This document shows, piece after piece, positions 6,130 through 62,175 of a stretch of DNA of 64,000 bases; the stretch's first letter is position 1; each line of letters begins with the position of its first letter. The stretch is from Rhodospirillales bacterium. GTDB lineage: Bacteria > Pseudomonadota > Alphaproteobacteria > Rhodospirillales > UBA2165. The notes below the pieces were generated by a model. That model saw nothing but the letters and a program-made list of their open reading frames with translations. It was not told the origin of the DNA and did no database searches. Where the stretch lies: NCBI GenBank assembly GCA_965207535.1, contig CBDBMR010000005.1, positions 95,905-159,904 of the forward strand. The letters run 5' to 3'. Position numbers and translations under genes: made by a program.

Positions 6130-6906
6130 ATGGCGCGGCCGGCAGCCAAAAAACGAACCACTGCGAAATCGGCAAAAAGGCCGGCGGTCAAGAAGCAGCG
6201 ACGCTCCCTGCCGCTCTACCAGCAGGTCGACAATATCATCCGCCGGCGGCTGATCGACAACGTCTGGAAGCCCGGCGACGCGCTGCCCAGCGAAATGCAG
6301 CTGGCGGCGGAGTTGGACGTCAGTCAGGGGACGGTCCGCAAGGCTCTCAACGACATGGTCGCCGAACACCTGCTTTACCGGCGTCAGGGACTTGGAACCT
6401 TCGTCTCCGAGCATACCGAGCGCCGGGCGCTGTTCTTCTTCTTCAAGATTCAGGGAAAGGACGGCTCCAGCTCCTTGCCCGAAAGCGAGCTCCTGGATTG
6501 CAAGCAGACCAACCCGACCAAGGTCGAGGTCGAGCGGCTGGAACTGGAGCCCGGCGCCAAAGTGGTGCGGTTTACCCGCGTCCGTTCGTTCCAGAATGTG
6601 CCGAGCATCGTCGAGGGAATTGCGCTGCCCCAGGAACTGTTCCCGGATTTCGGCATCGAACTTCAGCCGCCCAATAATCTCTTCAGATTCTATCAATCCA
6701 TCTACGGGGTCACCGTCGCCAAGGCGCGGGAGCTGATCTCGGCCGTCAGCGCCACCAAGAAAGAGGCCGGGCTTCTCGGCATCAAGGCGGGCGCGCCGTT
6801 GTTGCAGATCGACCGGACGTCGATGACCATTGACGGACGGCCGGTGGAATGGCGGGTCAGCCGCTGCAATACATCAAACCATCATTATGTCTCCGAGCGC
6901 GGTTAG
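6130..6906 (+). CDS. GntR family transcriptional regulator, HutC subfamily (wHTH + UTRA)
   Basis: LPLYQQVDNIIRRRLIDNVWKPGDALPSEMQLAAELDVSQGTVRKALNDMVAEHLLYRRQGLGTFV, followed by a UTRA-like C-terminus. It is divergent from the cupin operon. Confidence 0.85.
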   Translation: MARPAAKKRTTAKSAKRPAVKKQRRSLPLYQQVDNIIRRRLIDNVWKPGDALPSEMQLAAELDVSQGTVRKALNDMVAEHLLYRRQGLGTFVSEHTERRALFFFFKIQGKDGSSSLPESELLDCKQTNPTKVEVERLELEPGAKVVRFTRVRSFQNVPSIVEGIALPQELFPDFGIELQPPNNLFRFYQSIYGVTVAKARELISAVSATKKEAGLLGIKAGAPLLQIDRTSMTIDGRPVEWRVSRCNTSNHHYVSERG

Positions 6907-6945
6907 TCGTCCGGCGAATTTCAGTTTCAGTTGGGAGGTTCCGTC

Positions 6946-13466: not shown

Positions 13467-14927
13467 TTGCGGCATACCATCTTGAGCGTGACCCACTTAC
13501 CTACCCTCGGCCTCGCGGCGCTCTTGCTCGCCGCGTCGGCGGGCCCGGCCGCCGCGCACGCGTTCGGTCAACGCTTCGATTTGCCTGTGCCACTGCCGTT
13601 CTTCCTGTTCGGCGCCGGTGCAGCGGTTGCCTTGTCGTTCGTTGTCGCCGCCCTGTTCATGCGTCATCGGCCCGACGACCAGCCGCCGAAAATGAACCTG
13701 CTGAACGTCCAGCCGTTTCGTATTCTGGCCCACCCCGTCCCGGTCTTTGTCATCAGGCTGATTTTTGTCGGGGTCTTTTTTCTGATCATCGCCACTGGAT
13801 ATGCCGGTAACCAAAACCCATTGCAGAATTTCTCGGTGGTCATGGTCTGGGTGATCGCGTGGGTCGGACTGGCATTCATATGTTCGCTGATCGGCAATGC
13901 CTGGGCGCTTCTCAATCCCTGGAACACGCTCTTCCTGTGGGCCGAACAAGCCTACGGAGCGGCAACGGGCAGGCGGCTGTCCAGCGGCCTCGCGTGCCCG
14001 CCCGGGATGGGGTCCTGGCCGGCCGTCATTCTGTTCGCCATCTTTGCCTGGATGGAAATTTCGTGGCCGGGCGGCGCGGTCCCTCGAAATATCGCCATCG
14101 CGCTCACCATCTATTCGGTCATCACCTGGACCGGCATGTTTCTCACCAGCCGCGAGGAGTGGTTGGAGCGCGGCGAGGCCTTTCACAACGTGTTCGGAAC
14201 ATTTGCGCGGTTCTCCATCACCGAGGGCCGGGCCACACCGGAAGGACGGGAATGGAATCTCCGGCCGCCCGGTGTCGGGTTGCGGGCCGGCAAACTGCCC
14301 AATGCCGGCCTGATGGTCTTCATCCTAGTGCTCTTGGCGACGGTCAGTTGGGACGGCTTTACCGAGACCGAGCAATCAAAACGCATCGCCCTCGAAGCCT
14401 TCTACATAATCCAGGACATCGGGCGGCTGGCCGTGCCGATCGTCGAATTGATCGGCCTCGCTGCGTTCCCGATCCTGTTTATTGCCGTCTATCTGATTTT
14501 CATGGCGGCGGTCAGCGCCATGGGCGGGGACGTCCGGGACACGTTCCGAGTGGCACGGATCATGGTCTACTCCATCGTCCCCATCGCCATCGCTTATCAC
14601 CTCTCCCACTACTACACGCTGCTAGCCATCGACGGGCAGCTTCTCATCTCACGCATTTCGGATCCGTTCGGGTTCGGCTGGGACCTGTTTGGGACCGCAG
14701 GGCACAAGGTCGACATCGCCGTGGTCAGCGCGAGGTCGGTCTGGTTCATTTCCGTCGGCGCGATCGTCGTCGGCCACGTGGCCGCCGTCTATCTCGCCCA
14801 TGCCGAGGCGCTGAAGTTTTACCGGGATCGCGGCCGCGCCCTCCGCAGCCAACTGCCGATGCTGGTTTTGATGGTCGGCTACACGATGATCAGTCTGTGG
14901 ATTATCGCCCAACCCATCGTTGCCTGA
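13467..14927 (+). CDS. Conserved-looking polytopic membrane protein of unknown function
   Basis: 486-aa ORF with a signal-like N-terminus ending AAAHAFGQRFDLPVPLP and then about 10 or more hydrophobic segments. I do not recognise the family. Confidence 0.6.
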   Translation: MRHTILSVTHLPTLGLAALLLAASAGPAAAHAFGQRFDLPVPLPFFLFGAGAAVALSFVVAALFMRHRPDDQPPKMNLLNVQPFRILAHPVPVFVIRLIFVGVFFLIIATGYAGNQNPLQNFSVVMVWVIAWVGLAFICSLIGNAWALLNPWNTLFLWAEQAYGAATGRRLSSGLACPPGMGSWPAVILFAIFAWMEISWPGGAVPRNIAIALTIYSVITWTGMFLTSREEWLERGEAFHNVFGTFARFSITEGRATPEGREWNLRPPGVGLRAGKLPNAGLMVFILVLLATVSWDGFTETEQSKRIALEAFYIIQDIGRLAVPIVELIGLAAFPILFIAVYLIFMAAVSAMGGDVRDTFRVARIMVYSIVPIAIAYHLSHYYTLLAIDGQLLISRISDPFGFGWDLFGTAGHKVDIAVVSARSVWFISVGAIVVGHVAAVYLAHAEALKFYRDRGRALRSQLPMLVLMVGYTMISLWIIAQPIVA

Positions 14928-15084
14928 GCATCCGCCGGACGCACCGGAAAGTGCGGAAATGGCGCGGAATTCAGCCCAAATTTATCTGGCAACCCCCGGG
15001 GGGCAATGCTATGTCACGGCACCTTTGGAAACCGATATTTGCCCGCCCCCGGGCCCACGAATTCATCCGGTGAGGAATTGATCG

Positions 15085-16044
15085 ATGAGTACCCAGGTAG
15101 CCGTTACCGATACCGTTTTTCCCAGCCTCGACCCCGCCAAGGAGGCCCTGTCCCGCGTCGATGCGGAACTCACGCTCGCTTCCGAGCCGACCGTGGAGGG
15201 CATCCTGGAGGTGGCCGCCGATGCCGACGCTCTGCTGGTCACCTATGGCCAGATCAACGCCGACGTCATTGCCGGGCTCAATAACTGCAAAGCCATCGGC
15301 CGGTTCGGAATCGGCACCGACAACATCGATATCGGGGCGGCGGCCGGGAAGGGAATCGTCGTCACCTACGCGCCGGTCTATTGCCTGGACGAGGTTTCGG
15401 ATCACGCGATGGCGCTCCTGCTGTCCGTGGCCCGCAAGATTCCGTACGCCAACAACCTGGTCGCCGACGGCCGTTGGGAAATGCCGGCGGTGGTCCCGAT
15501 CGCGCGGCTCCGGGGAAACACCCTCGGCCTCCTGGGCCTCGGCAACATCCCGCAGCAAATTGTCGGCAAGGCGCAGGCGTTCGGCATGAACGTCATTGCC
15601 GCCGACCCGTACTGCCCCGATGAAGTCTTTGGGAAGCTGAATGTCGCCAAGGTCGAGTTTGACGATCTCCTGGCGCAATCGGACTACATTTCCGTCCACG
15701 CGCCGCTGACGCCCGAGACCGAGAAGATGTTCAACATGGACGCCTTCAAGAAGATGAAGAACACAGCGTTCCTCATCAACACCGCGCGCGGACCCCTGGT
15801 CGATACCGCAGATCTGGCCGCCGCGCTGGACGCGGGCGAAATCGCCGGCGCCGGCCTCGACGTGTTGCCGTCCGAGCCGCCGGCCGCCGATGACCCCATC
15901 GTCGGGCGGGACAATGTGGTGATCACCCCGCACACCGGGTTCTACTCCGAAGACGCCTTGCTGGATCTGCAGACCACGGTCGCCAGCGACGTCGCCGCCG
16001 TACTCGCCGGCGAGGAGCCCAAATATCCCGTGAAGCCCCGCTAA
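15085..16044 (+). CDS. D-isomer-specific 2-hydroxyacid dehydrogenase family protein
   Basis: LGLLGLGNIPQQIV NAD motif, SDYISVHAPLTPET, NTARGPLVD and a TPHTGFYS catalytic His region. Confidence 0.85.
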   Translation: MSTQVAVTDTVFPSLDPAKEALSRVDAELTLASEPTVEGILEVAADADALLVTYGQINADVIAGLNNCKAIGRFGIGTDNIDIGAAAGKGIVVTYAPVYCLDEVSDHAMALLLSVARKIPYANNLVADGRWEMPAVVPIARLRGNTLGLLGLGNIPQQIVGKAQAFGMNVIAADPYCPDEVFGKLNVAKVEFDDLLAQSDYISVHAPLTPETEKMFNMDAFKKMKNTAFLINTARGPLVDTADLAAALDAGEIAGAGLDVLPSEPPAADDPIVGRDNVVITPHTGFYSEDALLDLQTTVASDVAAVLAGEEPKYPVKPR

Positions 16045-16125
16045 CGCCGCGGCCAAGGGAGAGCCCGACATGAAAGGCATGGTGGCTGACGATCATCATA
16101 GATACCCCAGCCAAGGAGACTTTCG

Positions 16126-16962
16126 ATGACTTCTCCCATGGTGGATTCCGCTTGGCTTGCCGAGCATCTGGACGATCCGGGGGTTCGCATTATCGAGGTT
16201 GAATCGGACCCCGAGGGAAAGGCCTACGACGAGGGACACGTTCCGGGCGCTATCCGCTGGTTTTGGAAGGACCTTTGCTGGCACGAGACCGACCGCCAGT
16301 TCGTGACGCCGGATGAGTTGGCCAAACGGCTCGGCGCCGCCGGGATCGGCGACAAGACCACGCTGGTTCTTTATGGCGATCCGGTTCAGTACGGAAACTA
16401 CGCCTTCTGGGCATTGAAGATGGCCGGCCATCCCGACCTGCGGTTGCTCGACGGCGCCCGCAGGAAGTGGCTTGCGGACGGTCACGAATTCACCACCGAC
16501 GTTCCCGCGTATGAGCCGGTCGGGTATACGCCCGGAACGCCCGACCAAACCATGCGTCTCGGGCGCGAGGCCGTGCGCGAGCGCCTGGGCGACCCCGGGC
16601 GCTTCCTGTTGGACGTGCGGACGCCCGAGGAATATTCGGGCGAACGGGTGATGGAGTACGGCCAATTCGACCACGGCGCCGAGCGTGGCGGCCGCATCCC
16701 CGGCGCCAGGCACTTGTTCTTCAAGGAACTGCTCAATGGCGACGATACCTACAAGAGCCCCGAGGAACTGAGCGCCAAATTCAAGGAAGCGGGCGCCGAC
16801 CCCGGCGACGCCGACGAGATCGTCGTCTATTGCCGCCTCTCCCACCGGGCCACCCTCGCCTGGACCGCCATGGCGCTGATCCTGGGCTGGGAGAACATCA
16901 AAATCTACGACGGTTCGTGGACCGAATGGGGCTCGATCGTCGGGTTTCCTGTCGAAAGGTAG
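16126..16962 (+). CDS. Rhodanese-domain sulfurtransferase (thiosulfate/3-mercaptopyruvate sulfurtransferase-like)
   Basis: Tandem rhodanese domains with the active-site loop VVYCRLSHRAT and GHVPGA / GRIPGA motifs. Confidence 0.85.
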   Translation: MTSPMVDSAWLAEHLDDPGVRIIEVESDPEGKAYDEGHVPGAIRWFWKDLCWHETDRQFVTPDELAKRLGAAGIGDKTTLVLYGDPVQYGNYAFWALKMAGHPDLRLLDGARRKWLADGHEFTTDVPAYEPVGYTPGTPDQTMRLGREAVRERLGDPGRFLLDVRTPEEYSGERVMEYGQFDHGAERGGRIPGARHLFFKELLNGDDTYKSPEELSAKFKEAGADPGDADEIVVYCRLSHRATLAWTAMALILGWENIKIYDGSWTEWGSIVGFPVER

Positions 16963-16977
16963 GAAGCGCCGCGCGGC

Positions 16978-17118
16978 CTAGATCGGGTCATGTTTTGACG
17001 GAACCACGGCGCGGTTTCGTCAAAACATGTGAATCCGATCTATTTCAATAGTGTAGAGCCGATTCACATGGATTGTCGGCATCGCAAAGCGACTCCGACA
17101 AACCATGATCGGCTCTAG
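16978..17118 (+). repeat. 141-bp CTAG-bounded three-hairpin intergenic repeat, copy A
   Basis: Near-identical to 51671-51811 (3 mismatches) and to the reverse complement of 46030-46170 (1 mismatch). It contains three consecutive imperfect inverted repeats. Confidence 0.9.
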
Positions 17119-17906
17119 CCGTTCGCCACGAAACCGCCGTCCACAAAGAGCGTATGCCCGGTCACGAAATCGGAAGCTGGGCTGGCGAGATACACCGCGG
17201 CCGCCAACAGATCATCGGTTTCCGCGATGCGGCCGAGCGGGATGCGTTTGACCACGTCATCTTCGAACTTCGCGAGATACTCGGCACGGCTCGGTGTGCG
17301 CACCGCGGTCGGTGCAAGAGAATTAACGCGAATGCCTTCCGGTCCCCATTCGACCGCAAGCGATTCCGTCAGGTGGCTGATTGCCGCCTTGATGGCCGAA
17401 TAGACCGATCGGGTCGGGATCGTCGAACGGGCAAACGTCGAGCTCAGATTGATGATCTTGCCATAGCCTGCGTCGCGCATCAGTTGACCAAGAATCGTAC
17501 ATGCAAAGAATGTCCCTTTGAGGCTCGTATCGAGGGACTTGTTCCATTCCGGCTCGGTGGTGTCCCAGGCGAGCGCCTCAATGGTATAGGCGGCACCGTT
17601 GACCAGAATATGCAGCCCGCCGAACCGATCGCGAACAAAGTCGCGCAATCCTTCGATCTGATCGACGTGTGAAAGATCTATTGAATAGGCCTCGGCGCGC
17701 GGGCCCAGCGCACCTATCTCGGCAACCAGCCCTTCCAGTTTGCTCTTGTCACGGCTGCAGACAATCACGTCCGCGCCGGCAGCGGCCAAACCAAGCGATA
17801 GGGCACGACCTATGCCCTCGCTGGCCCCGGTAACAATCGCCACACGATCGTCGAGACGAAAGCTATCAAGGATATCCGAGCTGGAACCGGTACCGGTCCG
17901 CGACAT
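17115..17906 (-). CDS. SDR family oxidoreductase
   Basis: VAIVTGASEGIGRA...YSAIKAA motifs. The ATG at 17906 has GGAAGG 7 nt upstream. The TAG stop (17115-17117) lies inside the terminal CTAG of repeat copy A. Confidence 0.85.
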   Translation of the reverse strand: MSRTGTGSSSDILDSFRLDDRVAIVTGASEGIGRALSLGLAAAGADVIVCSRDKSKLEGLVAEIGALGPRAEAYSIDLSHVDQIEGLRDFVRDRFGGLHILVNGAAYTIEALAWDTTEPEWNKSLDTSLKGTFFACTILGQLMRDAGYGKIINLSSTFARSTIPTRSVYSAIKAAISHLTESLAVEWGPEGIRVNSLAPTAVRTPSRAEYLAKFEDDVVKRIPLGRIAETDDLLAAAVYLASPASDFVTGHTLFVDGGFVANG

Positions 17907-18124
17907 GAATGAGCCTTCCACAAAATAATTCGACGGCAGAACCTAGCGGCTCGAATCGGTTCTGTCTGCACCGGAAAAACGCCCTTGGCGCATTGCCGTG
18001 CGCGAGATGGACGGACGCCTCCGGCGATGTCAGGGCACTCCGGGCGGTTCGGGCCGGGGATCCGGTCAGCGTCGAGCGGGTGCCCGGCTAAAGCGACTAT
18101 CCCGGCGCCTTCAAATCGCCGGCC

Positions 18125-19132
18125 CTATGTCCAGGTTGCAAACGCCATCCCGGTACCGGTTCCCACCTCGGACCGATAGCAGGGCACATAGTCCAGCAGC
18201 GTCATGTCTAGGCCGCTGTCTTCGAGAATGCCGCAGGCGGCAATCCAGTTCTTGATTTCGGACGTTCCGGACTGAAAGGCTTCGTTTCCGTCCCCGGTCA
18301 GGGCGGCGCGGTCGCCCGCCAGCATGGCGTCCAACAGCTTACGGTCGAACGCCTCGTCGATGACGAAATGGGTCAGGCCGCCCGATGCGATCACGGCGAC
18401 GCGGGTGTCCGCTTCCCAGGACCTGATCCCGCGCGCGATGGACCGGCCGATCTCGTAGCACCGCGCGGCGGTCGGCTGGTTGGGCGGAAAATAGGTATTG
18501 ATCAGAATTGGAACAAAGGGGATCGGCCGGTCTTTCAGCAGCCGCCGGTAAATGAAGCCGAAAGCATGCCCGATGGTGCGCGGACCATGCGCATCGGCGG
18601 GCGGCCGCCTGGACGAGGTGACATCGAACCGATCCTCGATGGTTTGCAGGATGATGTGTTCGGCAAGCGCCCCGTCGACCGGATAGTCGGTATCCTCCGC
18701 CGGCCAATAGGACAGGCGGACGGGCAGCATGGGCGGCGGGAGGTTGGGATCGGAGGCATCAACGGCCAGCGCCCGAACCGAACTGCCGTGATAGATGACG
18801 AAGGCCGGCTGTACGTCGTCGAAGAACCATTCCTTTTGGTCGTCGCCGACGATGATCAGCACATCGGGATCGGCCTCCGCGAGCTTCGCGGCCAGCGCAT
18901 CCAGATGCCGTTGGCACGCCGCGTAGCTCGCCTCGCGGTTCTCCGGCGTATCCAGCGCGGTATAGTGCGCCGTATCACGCACCGATTTCAGCTCCTCGAA
19001 GGAGTACATTTCCCCGCGGTAGGGGTGCGCCGGCGCCGCCCGGTCCGCATCCGTCCGGATATCCCAGTGCTCGGGCGCGAGCGAGAGCATCGGACTATGC
19101 GAGGTGCCGATCCCGAGAACGATTTCCGCCAC
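18125..19132 (-). CDS. Class III extradiol ring-cleavage dioxygenase (LigB family)
   Basis: IVLGIGTSHSPML N-terminus and ASGGLTHF motif. The GTG at 19132 has GGAGG 8 nt upstream. Confidence 0.75.
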   Translation of the reverse strand: MAEIVLGIGTSHSPMLSLAPEHWDIRTDADRAAPAHPYRGEMYSFEELKSVRDTAHYTALDTPENREASYAACQRHLDALAAKLAEADPDVLIIVGDDQKEWFFDDVQPAFVIYHGSSVRALAVDASDPNLPPPMLPVRLSYWPAEDTDYPVDGALAEHIILQTIEDRFDVTSSRRPPADAHGPRTIGHAFGFIYRRLLKDRPIPFVPILINTYFPPNQPTAARCYEIGRSIARGIRSWEADTRVAVIASGGLTHFVIDEAFDRKLLDAMLAGDRAALTGDGNEAFQSGTSEIKNWIAACGILEDSGLDMTLLDYVPCYRSEVGTGTGMAFATWT

Positions 19133-19261
19133 GACCAATTCCTCCCCGGCGGTGGTTGTTGATCGGCCTCAAGGATATCGGGTGAGCGCGCGCCCCGACA
19201 GACGCATCCACCGGAGTGTCCGCCCATCGGCTAGCTGAGAGAAGATCGGCGGGATGGAGAC

Positions 19262-19759
19262 TTACGCGTCGCGCAGAACGGCCTCGAAGAACATCAGGGT
19301 TTCCTCGGCGAAGCGCCACATGTTGTCTTCGCGGTCCGCGTGGCCGGTTTCGATGGTGACGGCCCGCTCCAAGGGGCCGGCGGCCGCGATGCAGGTGTGT
19401 CCCGCATCGTCACCATAGCGATTGCCGGTCGGCCCGGCGGCGCCCGCTTCAGCCAATCCCCAGGTCGTGCCCAGCTTCTCGCGAACGGCGGCGGCGGTCA
19501 GCTTGACAAACGGTTCGGAGGCCGAGCGCACACCCGGATGGTCGTCGAGATCGACCTCGAGAAACACGTCGCGCGCCTTGTGGGTATAAATCACCCCGCC
19601 GCCCATGAAGTAGGCCGAGGCGCCGGGAATGCTGAGAAGCGCGGCGGCAACCAGGCCGCCGGTGGACGATTCGGAAACCGCGACCGTCTCGCCGCGGTCC
19701 TTGAGAAGCCGGCCGACCGTCTCCGCCAAGGGCGTCAGTCTGCGGATAGGGTCGGCCAT
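19262..19759 (-). CDS. CinA/PncC-type (nicotinamide-nucleotide amidohydrolase-like) domain protein
   Basis: TVAVSESSTGGLVAAALLSIPGASAYFMGGGVIYTHKAR...GLAEAGAAGP are hallmark CinA C-terminal domain motifs. The start at 19759 is 8 nt after the upstream gene's stop. The track's longer ORF overlaps that gene out of frame. Confidence 0.8.
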   Translation of the reverse strand: MADPIRRLTPLAETVGRLLKDRGETVAVSESSTGGLVAAALLSIPGASAYFMGGGVIYTHKARDVFLEVDLDDHPGVRSASEPFVKLTAAAVREKLGTTWGLAEAGAAGPTGNRYGDDAGHTCIAAAGPLERAVTIETGHADREDNMWRFAEETLMFFEAVLRDA

Positions 19760-19767
19760 CCCGAACG

Positions 19768-20790
19768 CTATTCGGCCGGCAGATATTTCTGCCGGTCGCT
19801 GCGGTCCTTCGACTTGATCGCCGCCAGGACCTTCTCCGCCGTCGCCGGCAAATTGTAGATCCGCGCGCCCACGGCGTCGTAGATGGCGTTGCAGATCGCC
19901 GCCGAGGTGGCGACCGCCGTCGGCTCGCCCACACCCTTGGCGCCGAACGGTCCCGTCGGGTCGAAGTTCTCGACGATGTCGACCTCCAGGTCGGGCATGT
20001 CGAGGCTGGTCGGCATGATGTAGTTGGTGAGATTCGGATTGATCTGTTTGCCCTCGTCGTCGAACAGCATCTCTTCCTGGATCGCCATGCCGACTCCCAT
20101 GGAGATACCGCCCTGAATCTGACCTTCGACCAACATCGGGTTGATCGCGGTACCGCAATCGTGGGCCGCCGCGATTCGCAGAACCTCGACCTCTCCGGTC
20201 TCTTCGTCCACCTCGACCTCCGCGATCTGGGTCGCGTAGACATAGGTGGAGAACGGCTTGCCCTGGCCGGTTTCCGGATCCATCGCGACGGTCGGCGGAT
20301 TGTAGGATGCGGACCCCAGCGCCGGCGTGCCGGCGCCGTTCTGCGCGTGCGCAGCAACCTCGCCGATGGGCAGGCAGGATTGCGGGAAGCCCTTCACCTG
20401 GATCTGCCGGTCCTTGGCCTCGAGCTGGTTGGGACGGACGCCCAGCATCGGCGCCGCGACCTCGAACAGGATGTTCTTGGCCTTTTCGGCCGCGAGCTGG
20501 ATCGCGTTGCCGGTGACATAGGTCGTGCGGCTGGCGATGGCGCCCGTATCCATGGGCGTCGCGTCGGTATCCGCCGAAACCACATGCACGTCATCGGTGG
20601 AGATGCCGAGTTCCTCCGCGGCGATCTGGCCGAGGACAGTGAGCGAGCCCTGGCCCGTTTCCACGGTGCCGGTGATCAGGGTCGCGGTGCCGTCCTCATT
20701 GACCTTCACCGTCGCCGCCGACGGGTTGGCCATCACGGTAAACCCGATCGGATACCACATGCAGCCCATGCCTTTTCCGCGCTTTTTCAT
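19768..20790 (-). CDS. Molybdenum hydroxylase (xanthine dehydrogenase/aldehyde oxidase family) Mo-binding subunit, C-terminal half (M-like subunit)
   Basis: 340 aa: GMGCMWYPIGF...TGTVETGQGSLTVLGQIAAEELG...DTDATPMDTGAIASRTTYVTG...NPMLVEGQIQGG...GAKGVGEP. This corresponds to the second half of a CoxL/XdhB-type subunit. Confidence 0.85.
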   Translation of the reverse strand: MKKRGKGMGCMWYPIGFTVMANPSAATVKVNEDGTATLITGTVETGQGSLTVLGQIAAEELGISTDDVHVVSADTDATPMDTGAIASRTTYVTGNAIQLAAEKAKNILFEVAAPMLGVRPNQLEAKDRQIQVKGFPQSCLPIGEVAAHAQNGAGTPALGSASYNPPTVAMDPETGQGKPFSTYVYATQIAEVEVDEETGEVEVLRIAAAHDCGTAINPMLVEGQIQGGISMGVGMAIQEEMLFDDEGKQINPNLTNYIMPTSLDMPDLEVDIVENFDPTGPFGAKGVGEPTAVATSAAICNAIYDAVGARIYNLPATAEKVLAAIKSKDRSDRQKYLPAE

Positions 20791-22178
20791 TGGCCGTCCT
20801 CCTTCCAGCCGAACCGCTCGGCGGCCTTTTCGAGGGAGTCCTTGACAACCACGCTTTGCAGCACTTGGCCGGTCGGGCTGGCGGAACCTTCATGGAAGGC
20901 GTTCTTCATCCGCAGCTCCAGCGGGTCGATGCCCAGCTTGTGGGCGATCTCGTCCATCTGGGATTCATAGGCGAAGCACACCTGCGGCGCCCCGAACCCG
21001 CGCATGGCGCCGGTCATGGTCTTGTTGGTGTACATGCAGTAGGCCTCGGCGAGCAGGTTCTCGATATTGTACGGCCCCGCCGACAGAATGCAGGCCTTGC
21101 CCAGGGTGGTTTCGCTCCACGAACAGTAGGCGCCGCCGTCCAGGACGAGGCGAACCTTGCGGGCGGTGATCATGCCGTCGTTGGTAACGCCGGTCTTGTA
21201 CTCCATGATGAACGGGTGCCTGGTCGTCGAGGCGATGAATTCCTCTTCGCGGGTATAGACCATTTTCACCGGCCGTCCCGTCTTCCGCGACAGCAGGGCC
21301 AGGGCCGGCTCGGTGGTGATCTCGTTCTTGCCGCCGAAGTTGCCGCCGACGATGGTGCCGACAATGCGGATCTTGTTGATCGGCATATCGAGCGTGCGGG
21401 CAATGTCGGCCCGGCCCAGGGTTATCCGCCCCAGGCTCGACCACAAGGTCACCCGGCCATTGGGGTCCCACTGCGCGATGGACGCATGAGGCTCCAGCGG
21501 CACGTGCTCGATCATCTGGGTCGAGTAGACGCCCTCGAAAATGTGGTCGGCCTCAGCGAAGCCCTTCTCGAGATCGCCTTTCTTGATCCGCTTGGTCGCG
21601 TAGATGTTGCTGTGCGGCGGATGGACCTTGATCTCGTCTTTCATCGCCTCCACCGGATCGTAGACCGGCTCCAGCGGCTTGTACTCGACCTTGATCCTCT
21701 CGCACGCCTCCTCGGCGATCTGTTCGGTCACCGCAGCCACTGCGGCGACCGGGTCACCAGCGTGGAACACGCGTTCGTCGGCCAGGACCGGCTGATCCTG
21801 ATAGGACGGACCATAGGAATTGACCGGAATTTCCTTGCCGACCAGCACCGCCGCTACGCCGGGCATGGCCTCGGCTTCGGAGGTATCGACGGACTTGATC
21901 AACGCCGAGGAAATGCCGGCCCGCTTCATCTTGGCGAACAGCATGTTCGGAAACGTTATGTCGTCGATGTATTTGGTCTGACCCAGGCCGTGCAGGCGGC
22001 CGTCCGGACGGGTCGCCCGCTGGCCCACCGCCGGCGTCTGGTGCCGCGCCTCGGTATCGATGGTCTCGACCGGAAAATGAGCCGGCTCGACGACCGACGG
22101 GAGACGAAGGTCCTCGTCGGTCTCCTTGAGGTCGGTCAGCGAATCCGTCTTATCGGCGACTTTGACATCATCAGTCAT
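20787..22178 (-). CDS. Molybdenum hydroxylase Mo-binding subunit, N-terminal half (a/b-hammerhead plus first MoCo domain; L-like subunit)
   Basis: 463 aa: GLGQTKYIDDITFPNMLFAKMKRA...GGNFGGK...GAMRGFGAPQVCFAYESQMD. It ends 4 nt into the next gene (ATGA overlap at 20787-20790). Confidence 0.85.
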   Translation of the reverse strand: MTDDVKVADKTDSLTDLKETDEDLRLPSVVEPAHFPVETIDTEARHQTPAVGQRATRPDGRLHGLGQTKYIDDITFPNMLFAKMKRAGISSALIKSVDTSEAEAMPGVAAVLVGKEIPVNSYGPSYQDQPVLADERVFHAGDPVAAVAAVTEQIAEEACERIKVEYKPLEPVYDPVEAMKDEIKVHPPHSNIYATKRIKKGDLEKGFAEADHIFEGVYSTQMIEHVPLEPHASIAQWDPNGRVTLWSSLGRITLGRADIARTLDMPINKIRIVGTIVGGNFGGKNEITTEPALALLSRKTGRPVKMVYTREEEFIASTTRHPFIMEYKTGVTNDGMITARKVRLVLDGGAYCSWSETTLGKACILSAGPYNIENLLAEAYCMYTNKTMTGAMRGFGAPQVCFAYESQMDEIAHKLGIDPLELRMKNAFHEGSASPTGQVLQSVVVKDSLEKAAERFGWKEDGQ

Positions 22179-37399: not shown

Positions 37400-38083
37400 G
37401 TGGGTCTGGACCGCAACCAGATCGCCTGGCGGATCGCCCAGGACATCGTCGACGGCAGCTACGTAAATCTCGGCATCGGCATGCCGGAACTGGTGGCCGA
37501 CTTCATCCCCGAGGGGCGCGAGATCGTCTTTCACAGCGAGAATGGGCTGTTGGGCATGGGGCCCAAGCCGCCGAAGGACCAGGAAGACCACGATTTGATG
37601 AACGCCGGCAAGAAACCGGTGACGCTGGTGCCGGGCGGCGCCTACTTTCATCACACCGACTCGTTCCTGATGATCAGGGGCGGCCATCTCGATCTCTGCG
37701 TGCTCGGGGCCTACCAGATCTCGGAGGCCGGCGATCTCGCCAACTGGGCGACCAACAGCGACAAGCGGCTGCCCGCCGTCGGCGGCGCCATGGACCTGGC
37801 GGCCGGCACCCCGCGGGTCGTCGCCATGACCACGCACTGCGCACGGGACGGCACGCCCAAACTTCTCGGCGAATGCACCTTTCCGCTGACCGCGGCGGGC
37901 GTCGTCGACCGGGTTTATACGGATCTCGCCGTGGTCGATGTGACGCCGGGGGGCTTCGTCGCGCGCGAGATCATCGACGGGATGACCATCGGCGAACTGC
38001 AGGACAGGACCGGGGCACGGCTCACCGCCGCGGATGATCTCGGCATCCTGAAAGCGCCAGCGCTCGGCGGAGCGGCCGGGTAG
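37400..38083 (+). CDS. 3-oxoacid CoA-transferase family, subunit B
   Basis: YVNLGIGMPELVADFIP...FHSENGLLGMGP (catalytic Glu motif SENG). It starts 1 nt after the subunit A stop. Confidence 0.85.
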   Translation: MGLDRNQIAWRIAQDIVDGSYVNLGIGMPELVADFIPEGREIVFHSENGLLGMGPKPPKDQEDHDLMNAGKKPVTLVPGGAYFHHTDSFLMIRGGHLDLCVLGAYQISEAGDLANWATNSDKRLPAVGGAMDLAAGTPRVVAMTTHCARDGTPKLLGECTFPLTAAGVVDRVYTDLAVVDVTPGGFVAREIIDGMTIGELQDRTGARLTAADDLGILKAPALGGAAG

Positions 38084-38090
38084 CCGCTAG

Positions 38091-38308
38091 CGCGTGGATG
38101 CCCCGGTCAAGCCGGGGCATGACGACTTGGTTTGTGTCGTATATCCACTCGTCATACCCCGCCTTATGCGGGGTATCCAGATTTCCAACTCTTTAACCAC
38201 AGAGACAGTGAGACAGTGAGATAGGAGGAGTTAACCAATTCTCCTCTGTGATCTCTGTGTCTCTGTGGTGAATATCCTGGATGCCCCGGACAGGCCGGGG
38301 CATGACGG
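38091..38308 (+). repeat. Composite REP-like repeat cluster R1 (GC hairpins plus a 75-nt CAGAGACAGTGAGAC...GTGTCTCTGTGG long hairpin)
   Basis: GGATGCCCCGGTCAAGCCGGGGCATGACG hairpin, GTCATACCCCGCCTTATGCGGGGTATCC hairpin, a long inverted repeat, and a second GGATGCCCCGG..CCGGGGCATGACGG hairpin. The reverse complement recurs at 59751-59943 and a related copy at 61841-62175. Confidence 0.85.
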
Positions 38309-38319
38309 CCGGGTAGCTG

Positions 38320-46029: not shown

Positions 46030-46170
46030 CTAGAGCCGATCATGGTTTGTCGGAATCGCTTTGCGATGCCGACAATCCATGTGAATCGGCTCTACACTAT
46101 TGAAATAGATCGGATTCACATGTTTTGACGAAACCGCGCCGTGGTTCCGTCAAAACATGACCCGATCTAG
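46030..46170 (-). repeat. 141-bp CTAG-bounded three-hairpin repeat, copy B (inverted orientation)
   Basis: Its reverse complement differs from copy A at 1 position. It lies 68 nt upstream of tRNA-Thr. Confidence 0.9.
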
Positions 46171-46238
46171 GAGCGGCGCGCTTGCCCGGACAATGCCGCT
46201 GTGGCATGTTGCGCGCCGCTTGAATCCGACCTTGATGT

Positions 46239-46313
46239 GCCGCCGTAGCTCAGGGGTAGAGCGCGCCCTTGGTAAGGGCGAGGTCGAGTGTTCAATTCAC
46301 TCCGGCGGCACCA
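46239..46313 (+). tRNA. tRNA-Thr (anticodon GGU), CCA encoded
   Basis: Manual cloverleaf: acceptor GCCGCCG/CGGCGGC, D-stem GCTC/GAGC, anticodon stem CGCCC/GGGCG with loop TTGGTAA, T-stem GAGTG/CACTC with loop TTCAATT, discriminator A plus CCA. Confidence 0.9.
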
Positions 46314-51346: not shown

Positions 51347-51428
51347 AGCGCCCCCCGGTCGGGTCTTGCCCGGCCCGCCCTGCCGTGGCAAATCTCCGGG
51401 TTCAAACGACACCCAAGAGGAGACACCC

Positions 51429-51674
51429 ATGGCCGATGTTGGCGGAATTGCGGCTGAACGATTGCGGTCCTTCGTCGAGCGGATCGAACGGCTGGAAGAA
51501 GAAAAAGCAGCGCTCGGCGCCGACGTCCGGGAGGTTTATTCCGAAGCCAAAAGCGTCGGATTCGATTCCAAGATCATCCGGCAGGTCATCCGTCTCCGGA
51601 AGCTGGACGGCAGCGACCGGCGCGAGCAGGAGGAACTCCTCGACCTCTACAAGACCGCCCTCGGCATGGACTAG
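51429..51674 (+). CDS. DUF2312 (UPF0335) family protein
   Basis: LRSFVERIERLEEEKAALGADVREVYSEAKSVGFDSKIIRQVIRLRK. AGAGGAG lies upstream. Its TAG stop is inside the first CTAG of repeat copy C. Confidence 0.85.
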   Translation: MADVGGIAAERLRSFVERIERLEEEKAALGADVREVYSEAKSVGFDSKIIRQVIRLRKLDGSDRREQEELLDLYKTALGMD

Positions 51675-51811
51675 ATCGGGTCATGTTTTGACGGAACCAC
51701 GGCGCGGTTTCGTCAAAACATGTGAATTCGATCTATTTCAATAGTGTAGAGCCGATTCACATGGATTGTCGGCATCGCAAAGCGATTCCGACAAACCATG
51801 ATCGGCCCTAG
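51671..51811 (+). repeat. 141-bp CTAG-bounded three-hairpin repeat, copy C
   Basis: 3 mismatches to copy A. Both terminal CTAGs contain the stop codons of the flanking convergent genes. Confidence 0.9.
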
Positions 51812-52512
51812 AATTTCTCCACCCACGGCCGCACCTCGATCTCCCAGGACCACGAACTGCGGTGCTGGCGATGCAGATGCAGATAGGTCTCGGCGATTGC
51901 GTCGGGCTCGAGCCACGCATCCTCGCCCCGGTCGCCCCCTTGGGTCCGTCCGCGGTCCGGGTTGGCGATGCCGCCGTCGACCACCACGTGGCCCACGTGA
52001 ATGTTCTCGGGGTGAAGTTCCCGCGCCATGCTTTGCGCCAGCCCGCGAAGGCCGAATTTTCCCATGGCGAAGGTGGCCGACTGCGGAAAGCCCTTGACCC
52101 CGGCCGACGCGCCGGTAAGCAGGATCGTCCCCTTCCCGGCGTCGAGCATCCGCCTGGCCGCCTGCTGGGCGACCAGGAAGCCGCCGAACGCCGTGGTCAG
52201 GATCGCCTGGCCGACCTCCTGGGGATCAAGCTCGACGAGCGGTCCCCGCACCCGGGCGCTGGCGTTGAACACCACGATGTCGGGCGTGCCGAAATCCGCA
52301 TCGACCCCCTCGAAAAGCGCGGCAACCGACGCCGCGTCCGCGGTGTCGCAGGTGTAGGATTTGCCGTCCACTTCGGCGGTCAGGCCGGCCAGCTTGTCGG
52401 TATTTCTGGCCGCCAGAGCGACCTTCATGCCTTCCTTGTGGAACAACCGTGCCAGCGACGCGCTCAGCCCCGACCCGGCGCCGACGATAACGGCGATCTC
52501 GTTTTCACTCAT
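51808..52512 (-). CDS. SDR family oxidoreductase
   Basis: IAVIVGAGSGLSASLA...FAMGKFG (YxxxK-like region). 234 aa. Confidence 0.8.
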   Translation of the reverse strand: MSENEIAVIVGAGSGLSASLARLFHKEGMKVALAARNTDKLAGLTAEVDGKSYTCDTADAASVAALFEGVDADFGTPDIVVFNASARVRGPLVELDPQEVGQAILTTAFGGFLVAQQAARRMLDAGKGTILLTGASAGVKGFPQSATFAMGKFGLRGLAQSMARELHPENIHVGHVVVDGGIANPDRGRTQGGDRGEDAWLEPDAIAETYLHLHRQHRSSWSWEIEVRPWVEKF

Positions 52513-59750: not shown

Positions 59751-59943
59751 TTTACCACAGAGCACACAGAGACCACGGAGGTTGGGAGGAGAGGTTTCGG
59801 TCCCGGCGCTCCTCACTGTCTCACCGTCTCCGTGGTTCGAGAATTGGAAATGCGGATACCCCGGACTTACGCCGGGGTATGACGAGTGGATATACGACAC
59901 AAACCAGGCCGTCATGCCCCGACTTGTTCGGGGCATCCACGCC
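59751..59943 (-). repeat. Composite REP-like repeat cluster R2 (reverse orientation of R1)
   Basis: GAGAATTGGAAATGCGGATACCCCGGACTTACGCCGGGGTATGACGAGTGGATATACGACACAAACCAGGCCGTCATGCCCCGACTTGTTCGGGGCATCCACGCC closely matches the reverse complement of 38091-38190. The ACCACAGAG...CTCCGTGGT long hairpin is also shared. Confidence 0.85.
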
Positions 59944-59945
59944 TT

Positions 59946-59975
59946 AGGCGGGATCAGGCGGGATCAGGCGGGATG
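59946..59975. repeat. 10-bp tandem repeat, 3 copies (AGGCGGGATC, last unit AGGCGGGATG)
   Basis: Read directly from the sequence. Confidence 0.75.
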
Positions 59976-61817: not shown

Positions 61818-61840
61818 GAGGCGGCGACCGGCGCCAAATG

Positions 61841-62175
61841 AAGAACGTCATCACCGGGCTTGACCCGGTGATCCACGTGGATGCCCGTGTCAAGCACGGG
61901 CATGACGGCTTCCTGAACCAGAGAGACAGTGAGACGGTGAGGAGTTAACTATTCCTACTCTGTGATCTCTGTGATCTCGGTGGTAAAATCCTGTTCCCCC
62001 TCACCCAGCGCCAAATAAAGAACGTCATGGCCGGGCCCACTGGACCGGCTTTGCCGGGCCAGCCGGCAAAGTGGCCCGGCCATCCACGTGGATGCCCGTG
62101 TCAAGCACGGGCATGACGCGTGATGCTGAATTAAAGAAGGTCGTCATCACCGGGCTTTGACCCGGTGATCCACGT
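61841..62175 (+). repeat. Composite REP-like repeat cluster R3
   Basis: GTCATCACCGGGCTTGACCCGGTGATCCACG (twice), GGATGCCCGTGTCAAGCACGGGCATGACG (twice), GTCATGGCCGGGC..GCCCGGCCATCCACG, and the CAGAGAGACAGTGAGAC...GTGATCTCGGTGG long hairpin related to R1 and R2. Confidence 0.85.

Follow-up and report, generated by a model that had tools for sequence, protein, structure and literature searches.

The 64-kb stretch of alphaproteobacterial DNA analysed here (the window) carries, in three places, a palindromic repeat of 141 bp that begins and ends with CTAG. The question raised by these copies is whether they belong to a mobile element, and if so which transposase moves it, or whether they form a structured RNA or terminator module. 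A preliminary description of this DNA had left both readings standing and had looked to the IS5 group for an explanation of the CTAG ends. We conclude that the copies are very probably those of a 135-bp MITE, a non-autonomous mobile element built from the ends of an ISRel6-type insertion sequence (IS) of the IS630/Tc1-mariner family. The positions of the copies are as follows.

16978-17118, + strand: MITE copy A from CTAG to CTAG, defined by sequence and alignment, between a rhodanese gene and an SDR (short-chain dehydrogenase) gene
16981-17115: the element proper of copy A (135 bp) under a TA-duplication model, with the two TA copies at 16979-16980 and 17116-17117
46030-46170, - strand: MITE copy B, intergenic, 68 bp upstream of the tRNA-Thr(GGT) gene at 46239-46313
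51671-51811, + strand: MITE copy C, between convergent genes, GapR-like (+) and SDR (-)

Reading the sequence and aligning the copies reproduced the coordinates, strands, CTAG bounds and one to three differences that had been reported for them. Only 3 of the 141 alignment columns vary among copies A, B and C (A and B differ by 1 nt, B and C by 2 nt, A and C by 3 nt), and in all three the similarity breaks off abruptly at CTAG on both sides. The copies form the top family in a repeat scan of the whole window, and a 41-nt core of hairpin 1 occurs three times when up to three mismatches are allowed, but never in 100 dinucleotide-preserving shuffles. The open reading frames that overlap the 141 bp from CTAG to CTAG are all spurious or belong to flanking genes, and so the element has no coding capacity of its own. 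Its terminal inverted repeats, CTAGATCGGGTCATG and CTAGAGCCGATCATG, agree at 12 of 15 positions. A distant-mode blastn search of a plasmid collection with the element gave no match.

The minimum-energy fold of the element consists of two 64-nt hairpins (element positions 2-65 and 77-140), each with a 3-nt bulge. Folding is almost equally strong on the two strands, at -77.4 kcal/mol on the + strand (z = -11.6 against shuffles) and -75.7 kcal/mol on the - strand (z = -11.5). In copy A the parts are arranged in the following order.

16979-17042, + strand: hairpin module A, defined by the fold, by comparison with IS ends and by pairing kept in 56 family members
17043-17053, + strand: AT-rich spacer of 11 nt between the modules, TTTCAATAGTG, defined by the fold and by an oriented listing of the family
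17054-17117, + strand: hairpin module B, defined by the fold, by comparison with IS ends and by pairing in the family

The outer arm of module A is similar to the IRR, or right end, of the IS (TAGATCGGGTCATGTTTTGACGGAACC); a loop of 7 nt and an inverted inner arm with a 3-nt TGA bulge complete the module. In module B the outer arm reads TAGAGCCGATCATGGTTTGTCGGAGTCG from the right end inward and agrees at 23 of 30 positions with the IRL, or left end, of ISRel6. The spacer keeps its length and AT-richness across subfamilies while its sequence varies. The element is thus composed of two back-to-back palindromes joined by an AT-rich spacer, and each half is one IS end together with its inverted copy. 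All of the inverted repeats listed in the preliminary description exist, but the three hairpins described there are reduced to two long ones in the minimum-energy fold. Since the four arms are mutually related, the middle hairpin can be understood as an alternative pairing of the two inner arms, and for the same reason three hairpins plus terminal repeats is also a possible reading of the structure.

If the copies are mobile, sites that are filled in one genome should be empty in another. Orthologues of the SDR gene beside copy C were collected and their contigs were retrieved for a comparison of sites. The genes and the unoccupied target that enter into this comparison are listed here.

51366-51674, + strand: GapR-like DNA-binding gene, given as the maximal ORF (81 aa are called in relatives), whose TAG stop at 51672-51674 lies in the left CTAG of copy C
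51808-52512, - strand: SDR gene, whose stop is the reverse complement of 51808-51810 and lies in the right CTAG of copy C
17115-17921, - strand: SDR gene beside copy A, with its stop codon within the right CTAG of copy A
19231-19234, no strand: unoccupied CTAG target site, at exactly which a relative (L046) has a mini-element

At the copy C site the window reads attCTAG, then 133 bp, then CTAGtccatgcc, and three relatives with an SDR that is 97% identical (L088, L089 and L090) read attCTAGtccatgcc. With longer flanks, the window has gagaaattCTAG, 133 bp and CTAGtccatgccgag where these three relatives have gagaaattCTAGtccatgccgag. In the relatives a single CTAG serves as the stop common to both convergent genes, which overlap by 4 bp, and compared with this empty site the insertion of copy C adds 137 bp. 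The opposite case is found at 19231-19234, where the window has catcggCTAGctgagag and L046 (MAG JAPPFK01, contig JAPPFK010000030.1), which is syntenic with window positions 13844-21604 at about 95% identity, has catcggCTAG, a mini-element of 55 bp and CTAGcggagag. The element is therefore polymorphic for insertion at both sites.

Copies A and B are less simple to compare. At the copy B site, L085 is without the element and reads cccaag, and L089 holds only a scar, CTAGATCGGCTCTAG. This scar is the exact remainder expected from a deletion between the GATCGG repeats of the two termini; an excision footprint was considered and rejected, the scar being longer than a footprint of the Tc1 type. At the copy A site the syntenic contig of L046 has other gene content, with the SDR gene absent and another ORF in its place, and gives no clean empty-site comparison.

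To obtain the wider distribution of the family, bacterial and archaeal genomes, one for each species, were scanned for the stem of hairpin 1 with the loop left free. The 82 loci found are nearly all in a small group of Rhodospirillales whose members include several MAGs, Pelagibius, Denitrobaculum, Thalassobaculaceae and a 'Reyranellaceae' MAG, with about 13-20 copies per genome when the exact stem pattern alone is counted. By BLAST, 141-bp dimers that are 94-99% identical to the window copies are present in five species-level genomes. The dimers of Pelagibius, Denitrobaculum and Thalassobaculaceae have a different second module, and those of the Reyranellaceae MAG are only about 74% identical, with completely different stems. 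Shorter forms also occur, namely monomers of 65 bp and mini-elements of about 61 bp that keep the two termini around one hairpin. A dimer (L068) and a monomer (L017) have identical flanks, and because of this a monomer could have arisen from a dimer at its site through loss of internal sequence.

Clean filled and empty sites, together with dozens of dispersed copies in related genomes, bear out the suggestion that this is a MITE or other non-autonomous mobile element. The near identity of the copies had been attributed to either recent spread or strong constraint. Orthologous copies in species-level genomes (L061 and L005, L032 and L010) are 94-95% identical, which is about the same as their flanking DNA, and the window copies share 98-99% identity; copy C is, moreover, absent from a relative that is about 95% identical. 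On these sequence identities, recent transposition in the lineage of the window is favoured over strong purifying selection, and of the two original options the first probably applies.

The strongest alternative is that the repeat is now a functional structured element under selection, for example a bidirectional terminator, a stabiliser of mRNA 3' ends or a small RNA, and that mobility explains its origin only. The very stable hairpins (z = -11.6) would suit such a role, as would the fact that two of the three window copies (A and C) abut stop codons, in each case of convergent genes, and there is a precedent in the Correia/NEMIS MITEs, whose hairpins act on mRNA (PMC2229807). The pairing itself is kept, with compensatory changes, across diverged subfamilies. 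Among 56 dimers drawn from every subfamily, 97.3% of cells in the two-hairpin structure are paired, changes on both sides are seen in 19 of 53 pairs, and controls in which the structure was slid along the sequence reach at most 43% pairing. The values observed were attained by none of 500 shuffles on four of five measures and by 1 of 500 on the fifth (further pair types). The independent lineages behind these statistics are few. Also conserved across subfamilies are the offset of 3 nt that sets inner arms apart from outer ones and an AT-rich spacer of 11-13 nt.

Several results argue against an RNA function. In an Rfam search of the window only the tRNA reached the gathering score, and a relaxed search of the element returned only sub-threshold, generic miRNA-hairpin matches that scored 21-27 bits where the cutoffs were 76-100. 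Consensus scans of the surroundings of copies A and B found no promoter, and no terminator that spans either 64-nt hairpin; the lone terminator-like match, a stem of 5 pairs at the left edge (16975-16989), is no more than shuffled sequence would give. The two strands fold equally well and both orientations occur, and the earlier suggestion of a structured RNA or terminator module accordingly finds no backing. Close strains are without a copy at the same loci, and divergence between orthologous copies has roughly kept pace with that of the flanks. The compensatory pairing can equally be explained by palindromic copying of an IS end followed by correction of one arm against the other, although the mere decay of an IS would leave it unexplained. 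The stem boxes of the modules (GAGCGG, GAGCAA, GAGCCT and GAGCGT) mirror the variety of IS ends, and each module may simply have arisen when a single IS end was made palindromic, so that pairing need not mean RNA function. In L002, L044 and L021 the inner arm has been restored to full complementarity with the outer arm, with a double change among the alterations, which suggests arm-to-arm correction. Taken as a rival to the MITE reading, selection for an RNA or terminator function is thus decidedly improbable.

A related reading starts from the pairing, the 3-nt offset and the spacer, which were kept while the stem sequences changed completely. The four-arm hairpins might be functional in transposition itself, with the inner pseudo-ends acting as extra binding sites for the transposase or with hairpins as single-strand intermediates, or they might have been exapted by the host as a 3'-end RNA that insulates convergent genes with formerly overlapping stops. 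We hold this to be unlikely.

The mobile-element reading was pursued through the target site. We tallied the bounding tetramers in 51 full-length copies, with the following results.

Left tetramer (n=51): CTAG 43, ATAG 3, TTAG 3, GTAG 1, CTGG 1
Right tetramer (n=51): CTAG 36, CTAA 4, CTAT 3, CTGG 5, CTGA 2, CCGC 1

CTAG stands on both sides of 30 of the 51 copies. The inner G on the left and the inner C on the right are invariant, and outside the central TA the variation falls on the outermost bases, bar a few decayed ends (e.g. CTGG, CCGC). A matched pair other than CTAG was never seen among the 51; instead there are combinations such as TTAG..CTAG, CTAG..CTAA, GTAG..CTAA and ATAG..CTAT. These data fit a duplication of TA within an NTAN target that is mostly CTAG, with an element that ends in 5'-GA...TC-3'. 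Because the duplicated target is TA, the element proper is 135 bp long and its insertion adds 137 bp. The CTGG and CTGA found at the right end of several copies have to be put down to mutation after insertion under the TA model.

An autonomous relative with the same target was found at the copy C site. In another close strain (L083 and L084), whose SDR is again 97% identical, foreign sequence begins at the CTAG of this site, CTAGAGCGTTTCATATTTTGACGGAAGCG (in its longer form CTAGAGCGTTTCATATTTTGACGGAAGCGTATCC), after which the contigs end. The same 54 nt (53/54) were found by blastn-short in a long-read MAG, CBDCSV01 (L007, contig CBDCSV010000002.1), where they are one end of a 1056-bp element at 793-1848 with CTAG on both sides. 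This element has two ORFs on either side of an A-run, of which the first encodes a helix-turn-helix protein and the second a DDE_3 protein (Pfam DDE_3, 4.9e-37; NCBIfam transpos_IS630, 153.9 bits where the cutoff is 100). Rhizobium etli proteins named 'IS630-like element ISRel6 family transposase' share 78% identity with this transposase. ISRel6 and six copies of an IS that is 87% identical are likewise all about 1050 bp long with CTAG..CTAG flanks, and such flanks were present in 8 of the 8 full-length IS copies examined. IS and MITE occur together in MAG CBDCSV01 and in the strain of L083, where the IS occupies the insertion site of copy C; in the MAG a MITE monomer (6868-6938) lies 5 kb from the IS.

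The ends of the IS and of the MITE were compared directly.

ISRel6 right end (IRR): CTAGAGCCTTTCATGTTTTGACGGAAGCG
L007 IS right end (IRR): CTAGAGCGTTTCATATTTTGACGGAAGCG
MITE left end: CTAGATCGGGTCATGTTTTGACGGAACC
ISRel6 left end (IRL): CTAGAGCGGATCATTTCTTATCGGAATCGG
MITE right end: CTAGAGCCGATCATGGTTTGTCGGAGTCGC

Without gaps, the left end of the MITE matches the IRR of the L007 element and that of ISRel6 at 23 of 30 positions each, and its 16-nt core, TCATGTTTTGACGGAA, is identical in the IRR of ISRel6. The right end of the MITE matches the IRL of ISRel6 at 23/30, and the Reyranellaceae variant matches the IRR of ISRel6 at 25/30; for comparison, a random 25-mer averages about 6.3/25. The stop codon of the transposase gene falls inside the IRR (...GTC AAA ACA TGA), and because of this the MITE stem CGTCAAAACATGA can be regarded as a relic of the 3' end of that gene. 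The search for a cognate IS proposed in the preliminary description thus led to an ISRel6-like member of the IS630 family, with ends that agree with those of the MITE at 23/30.

The best matches to IS ends are imperfect at 23/30, and the exact parent of the MITE is not among the IS found. The inner arms and hairpins are absent from the IS itself. Within one dimer the left and right outer ends differ at positions 3-8, so that a single transposase must tolerate variation there.

These ends and targets also bear on the second rival, a MITE derived from the IS5 group that duplicates a 4-bp CTAG (YTAR) target, of the type of MITEPsy1 in Pseudomonas syringae. MITEs of this type that duplicate the 4 nt of CTAG are known (PMC3189936), and the 30 of 51 copies with CTAG on both sides would agree with one. 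A 4-bp duplication, however, predicts matched pairs such as TTAG..TTAG, and the non-CTAG sides never match. The ends of the MITE match those of an IS630-family IS, and the transposase of the IS at the copy C site is of the DDE_3/IS630 type and not DDE_Tnp_1. We therefore consider an IS5-type origin very improbable, and the link to the IS5 group first drawn from the CTAG ends must be given up in favour of a TA duplication and an ISRel6-like parent. Least probable of all is a REP/REPIN-type palindrome spread by a RAYT (IS200/IS605-like) that recognises a hairpin and a tetranucleotide, which would account for hairpin units with a fixed bounding tetranucleotide that occur as singlets and inverted doublets, but not for a symmetric TA duplication with flanking-base variation on both sides, where REP/RAYT and IS200/IS605 are asymmetric and without duplication, nor for ends homologous to an IS630-family IS, including the 3' end of its transposase gene. 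A RAYT gene was not encountered in analyses that were aimed at other features.

The presence or absence of copies in related strains, and a target-site signature, had been proposed as a check on mobility; orthologous sites differ in whether they hold a copy, and the signature is present. For the IS630 type, the earlier statement that no transposase is nearby held up, since a tblastn search of the 64-kb window with the cognate transposase found none. Element-like pairs of ends 400-4000 bp apart were sought in the window and the first 82 loci, and none were found.

Elements of the IS630 family insert into TA and duplicate it, as established in vitro for ISY100 (PMC2170065). The transposase attaches to the terminal repeats through a bipartite HTH domain at its N terminus, and the element is cut and pasted into TA (PMC2170065). 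IS630 itself prefers TA within 5'-CTAG-3' (Tenzen & Ohtsubo 1991; Tenzen 1990, as cited in PMC2170065). The left 28 bp or so of the MITE are similar to the IRR of the IS, which overlaps the last codons and the stop of the transposase gene, and the right 28 bp or so are similar to an IS end as well, most closely to the IRL of ISRel6. By analogy, a transposase made elsewhere in the genome would bind the outer ends, excise the element and paste it into a TA, with a strong preference for the TA of CTAG, and the TA would be duplicated. With a G at its start and a C at its end, the element would restore a full CTAG on both sides. Because it shares target and duplication with IS630/Tc1-mariner elements and has ends homologous to theirs, we infer that mobilisation in trans by an ISRel6-like transposase is the most likely route.

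RIME, the Rhizobium-specific intergenic mosaic elements, resemble the present family in being mosaic palindromes in an alphaproteobacterium. The closest analogue is RUP of Streptococcus pneumoniae, a 107-bp MITE tied to IS630-Spn1 by the similarity of its ends and by TA targets (PMC2229807). Both are about 100-140 bp long, non-coding and present in many copies, with IS630-like ends, insertion into TA and inferred mobilisation in trans (PMC2229807). Their sequences are unrelated, however, and the host of the window element is a GC-rich alphaproteobacterium. The window element has four end-like arms and two 64-nt hairpins, its TA is almost always in CTAG, and it is found at stop codons, whereas RUP is found inside other IS elements. 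With the ISRel6-like IS the MITE shares the terminal 28 bp or so (23/30), the 16-nt core, the CTAG..CTAG flanks, the same genomes and the copy C site; it differs in having no transposase, in its length (135 bp against about 1050 bp) and in its inverted copies of the ends with a 3-nt offset. IS630 of Shigella sonnei and ISY100 of Synechocystis have the same TA target and TA duplication, but these are autonomous elements that have been studied experimentally, and for the present family, known from sequence alone, the mechanism is borrowed from them. The Correia/NEMIS elements of Neisseria are likewise short, TA-flanked MITEs with long stem-loops, internal-deletion variants and filled and empty sites (PMC2229807). 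Effects through promoters, IHF sites and RNase III are documented for Correia elements, their sequence is unrelated, and the review assigns no cognate IS to them (PMC2229807). MITEPsy1 is also short and associated with CTAG, but it has a 4-nt duplication and a likeness to the IS5-family ISPsy2 (PMC3189936), whereas only TA is duplicated here and the ends are IS630-like.

No published description of this particular family was found. The MITE family is new, but an IS630-derived MITE is a kind of element that is already known and would not surprise a specialist, and IS630/Tc1-mariner biology as known is left unchanged. What changes is that a repeat so far unexplained can be annotated as a mobile element and assigned to a named parent family, which should aid annotation and assembly in the poorly studied marine Rhodospirillales. 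Contigs break at these repeats, for example in L083 and L084.

The position of copies at gene ends can be explained by the choice of target, because CTAG is rare and is often a stop codon. At a G+C content of 64% the window contains 31 CTAGs, 6 of which are element boundaries, where base composition predicts 213 (about seven-fold more than observed) and a Markov model 55. Open frames of 100 codons or more end at about 40% of the CTAGs in the window. With its initial G and final C, the element restores CTAG, and with it a TAG stop on either strand, at both of its boundaries. Insertions at TAG stops would be harmless and persistent, as the stop is regenerated for the gene on either side. Copy C is a natural example of such a harmless selfish element, in which the overlapping stops of two convergent genes have been split and neither gene is damaged, and the filled, empty and scarred sites of the family are ready-made strain markers.

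The full-length IS630-family element of L007 (CBDCSV010000002.1) is inserted at the CTAG stop codon (1845-1848) of a gene for a cyclic-nucleotide-binding ion channel, so that the IS and the 141-bp MITE show the same stop-codon landing. At the site of MITE copy C, where the bounding CTAGs supply the stop codons of the convergent GapR-like and SDR genes, the spacer separating both stop codons is 6 bp or 18 bp in other relatives; L091, L092 and L093 read CTAGggctgcCTAG, and L085 has an 18-bp spacer beginning ggctgc. One end of copy C is atypical, with CTAGGGCC in place of CTAGAGCC, and the first 7 nt of CTAGGGCC are also found in the inter-stop spacer of relatives. Deletion, insertion and conversion are candidate events in the history of this site.

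A 15-nt scar, CTAGATCGGCTCTAG, which is the remnant expected from deletion between the GATCGG repeats in both termini, was seen more than once, at the copy B site in L089 (around 9090) and in L070 (around 1478-1492). In L070 the scar directly adjoins a full dimer, that is, an element with both hairpin modules, and one CTAG is common to both, which suggests that CTAGs made by earlier insertions have repeatedly served as targets for new ones.

Only 68 bp separate copy B from the downstream tRNA-Thr(GGT) (window 46030-46313), which places the copy in what should be the promoter-proximal region of the tRNA gene; the same tRNA gene and flanks are retained in relatives without this copy. Around copy A, gene content differs between the window and the syntenic relative L046 (JAPPFK010000030.1), the two genomes being approximately 95% identical:

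Window 16091-16125 versus L046 2247-3243: 34 bp in the window, an extra ~1 kb in L046
Window 16955-18123 versus L046 4073-4460: copy A and an SDR gene in the window, a different 387-bp ORF in L046

The window contains 31 CTAGs against an expectation of 213, an under-representation of approximately 7-fold. Where MITE boundaries have decayed (L005, L037, L044, L070, L076, L079, L072, L036, L029, L030 and L049), they recurrently read CTGG or CCAG, a transition within the central TA. In enterobacteria, such a pattern is ascribed to very-short-patch repair.

The inner arm of module A has, in some copies, lost its 3-nt bulge and turned into an exact complement of its outer partner:

L002, 5361-5497
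L044, 2086-2223
L021, 553-635
L063, 2169-2240

The change in L002 includes a matching double substitution, and the two sides of a hairpin seem to have been homogenised against one another. The stem pattern was also matched, with short and different loops, in L025 (Anaerolineales MAG), L039 (Asticcacaulis) and L041 (Gammaproteobacteria MAG); these loci have no similarity to the remainder of the MITE outside the stem pattern and are probably chance or unrelated hairpins.

A second repeat family, a mosaic of several GC-rich hairpins unrelated to the MITE, is present in the window as 3-4 partial copies in both orientations:

38078-38314, mosaic repeat
59812-59947 (-), mosaic repeat
61837-62157, mosaic repeat

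Example hairpins are GTGGATGCCCCGGnnnnGCCGGGGCATGACG and GTCATACCCCG..CGGGGTATCC, and the family also includes the palindrome CAGAGACAGTGAGACAGTGAG / CTCTGTGATCTCTGTG.
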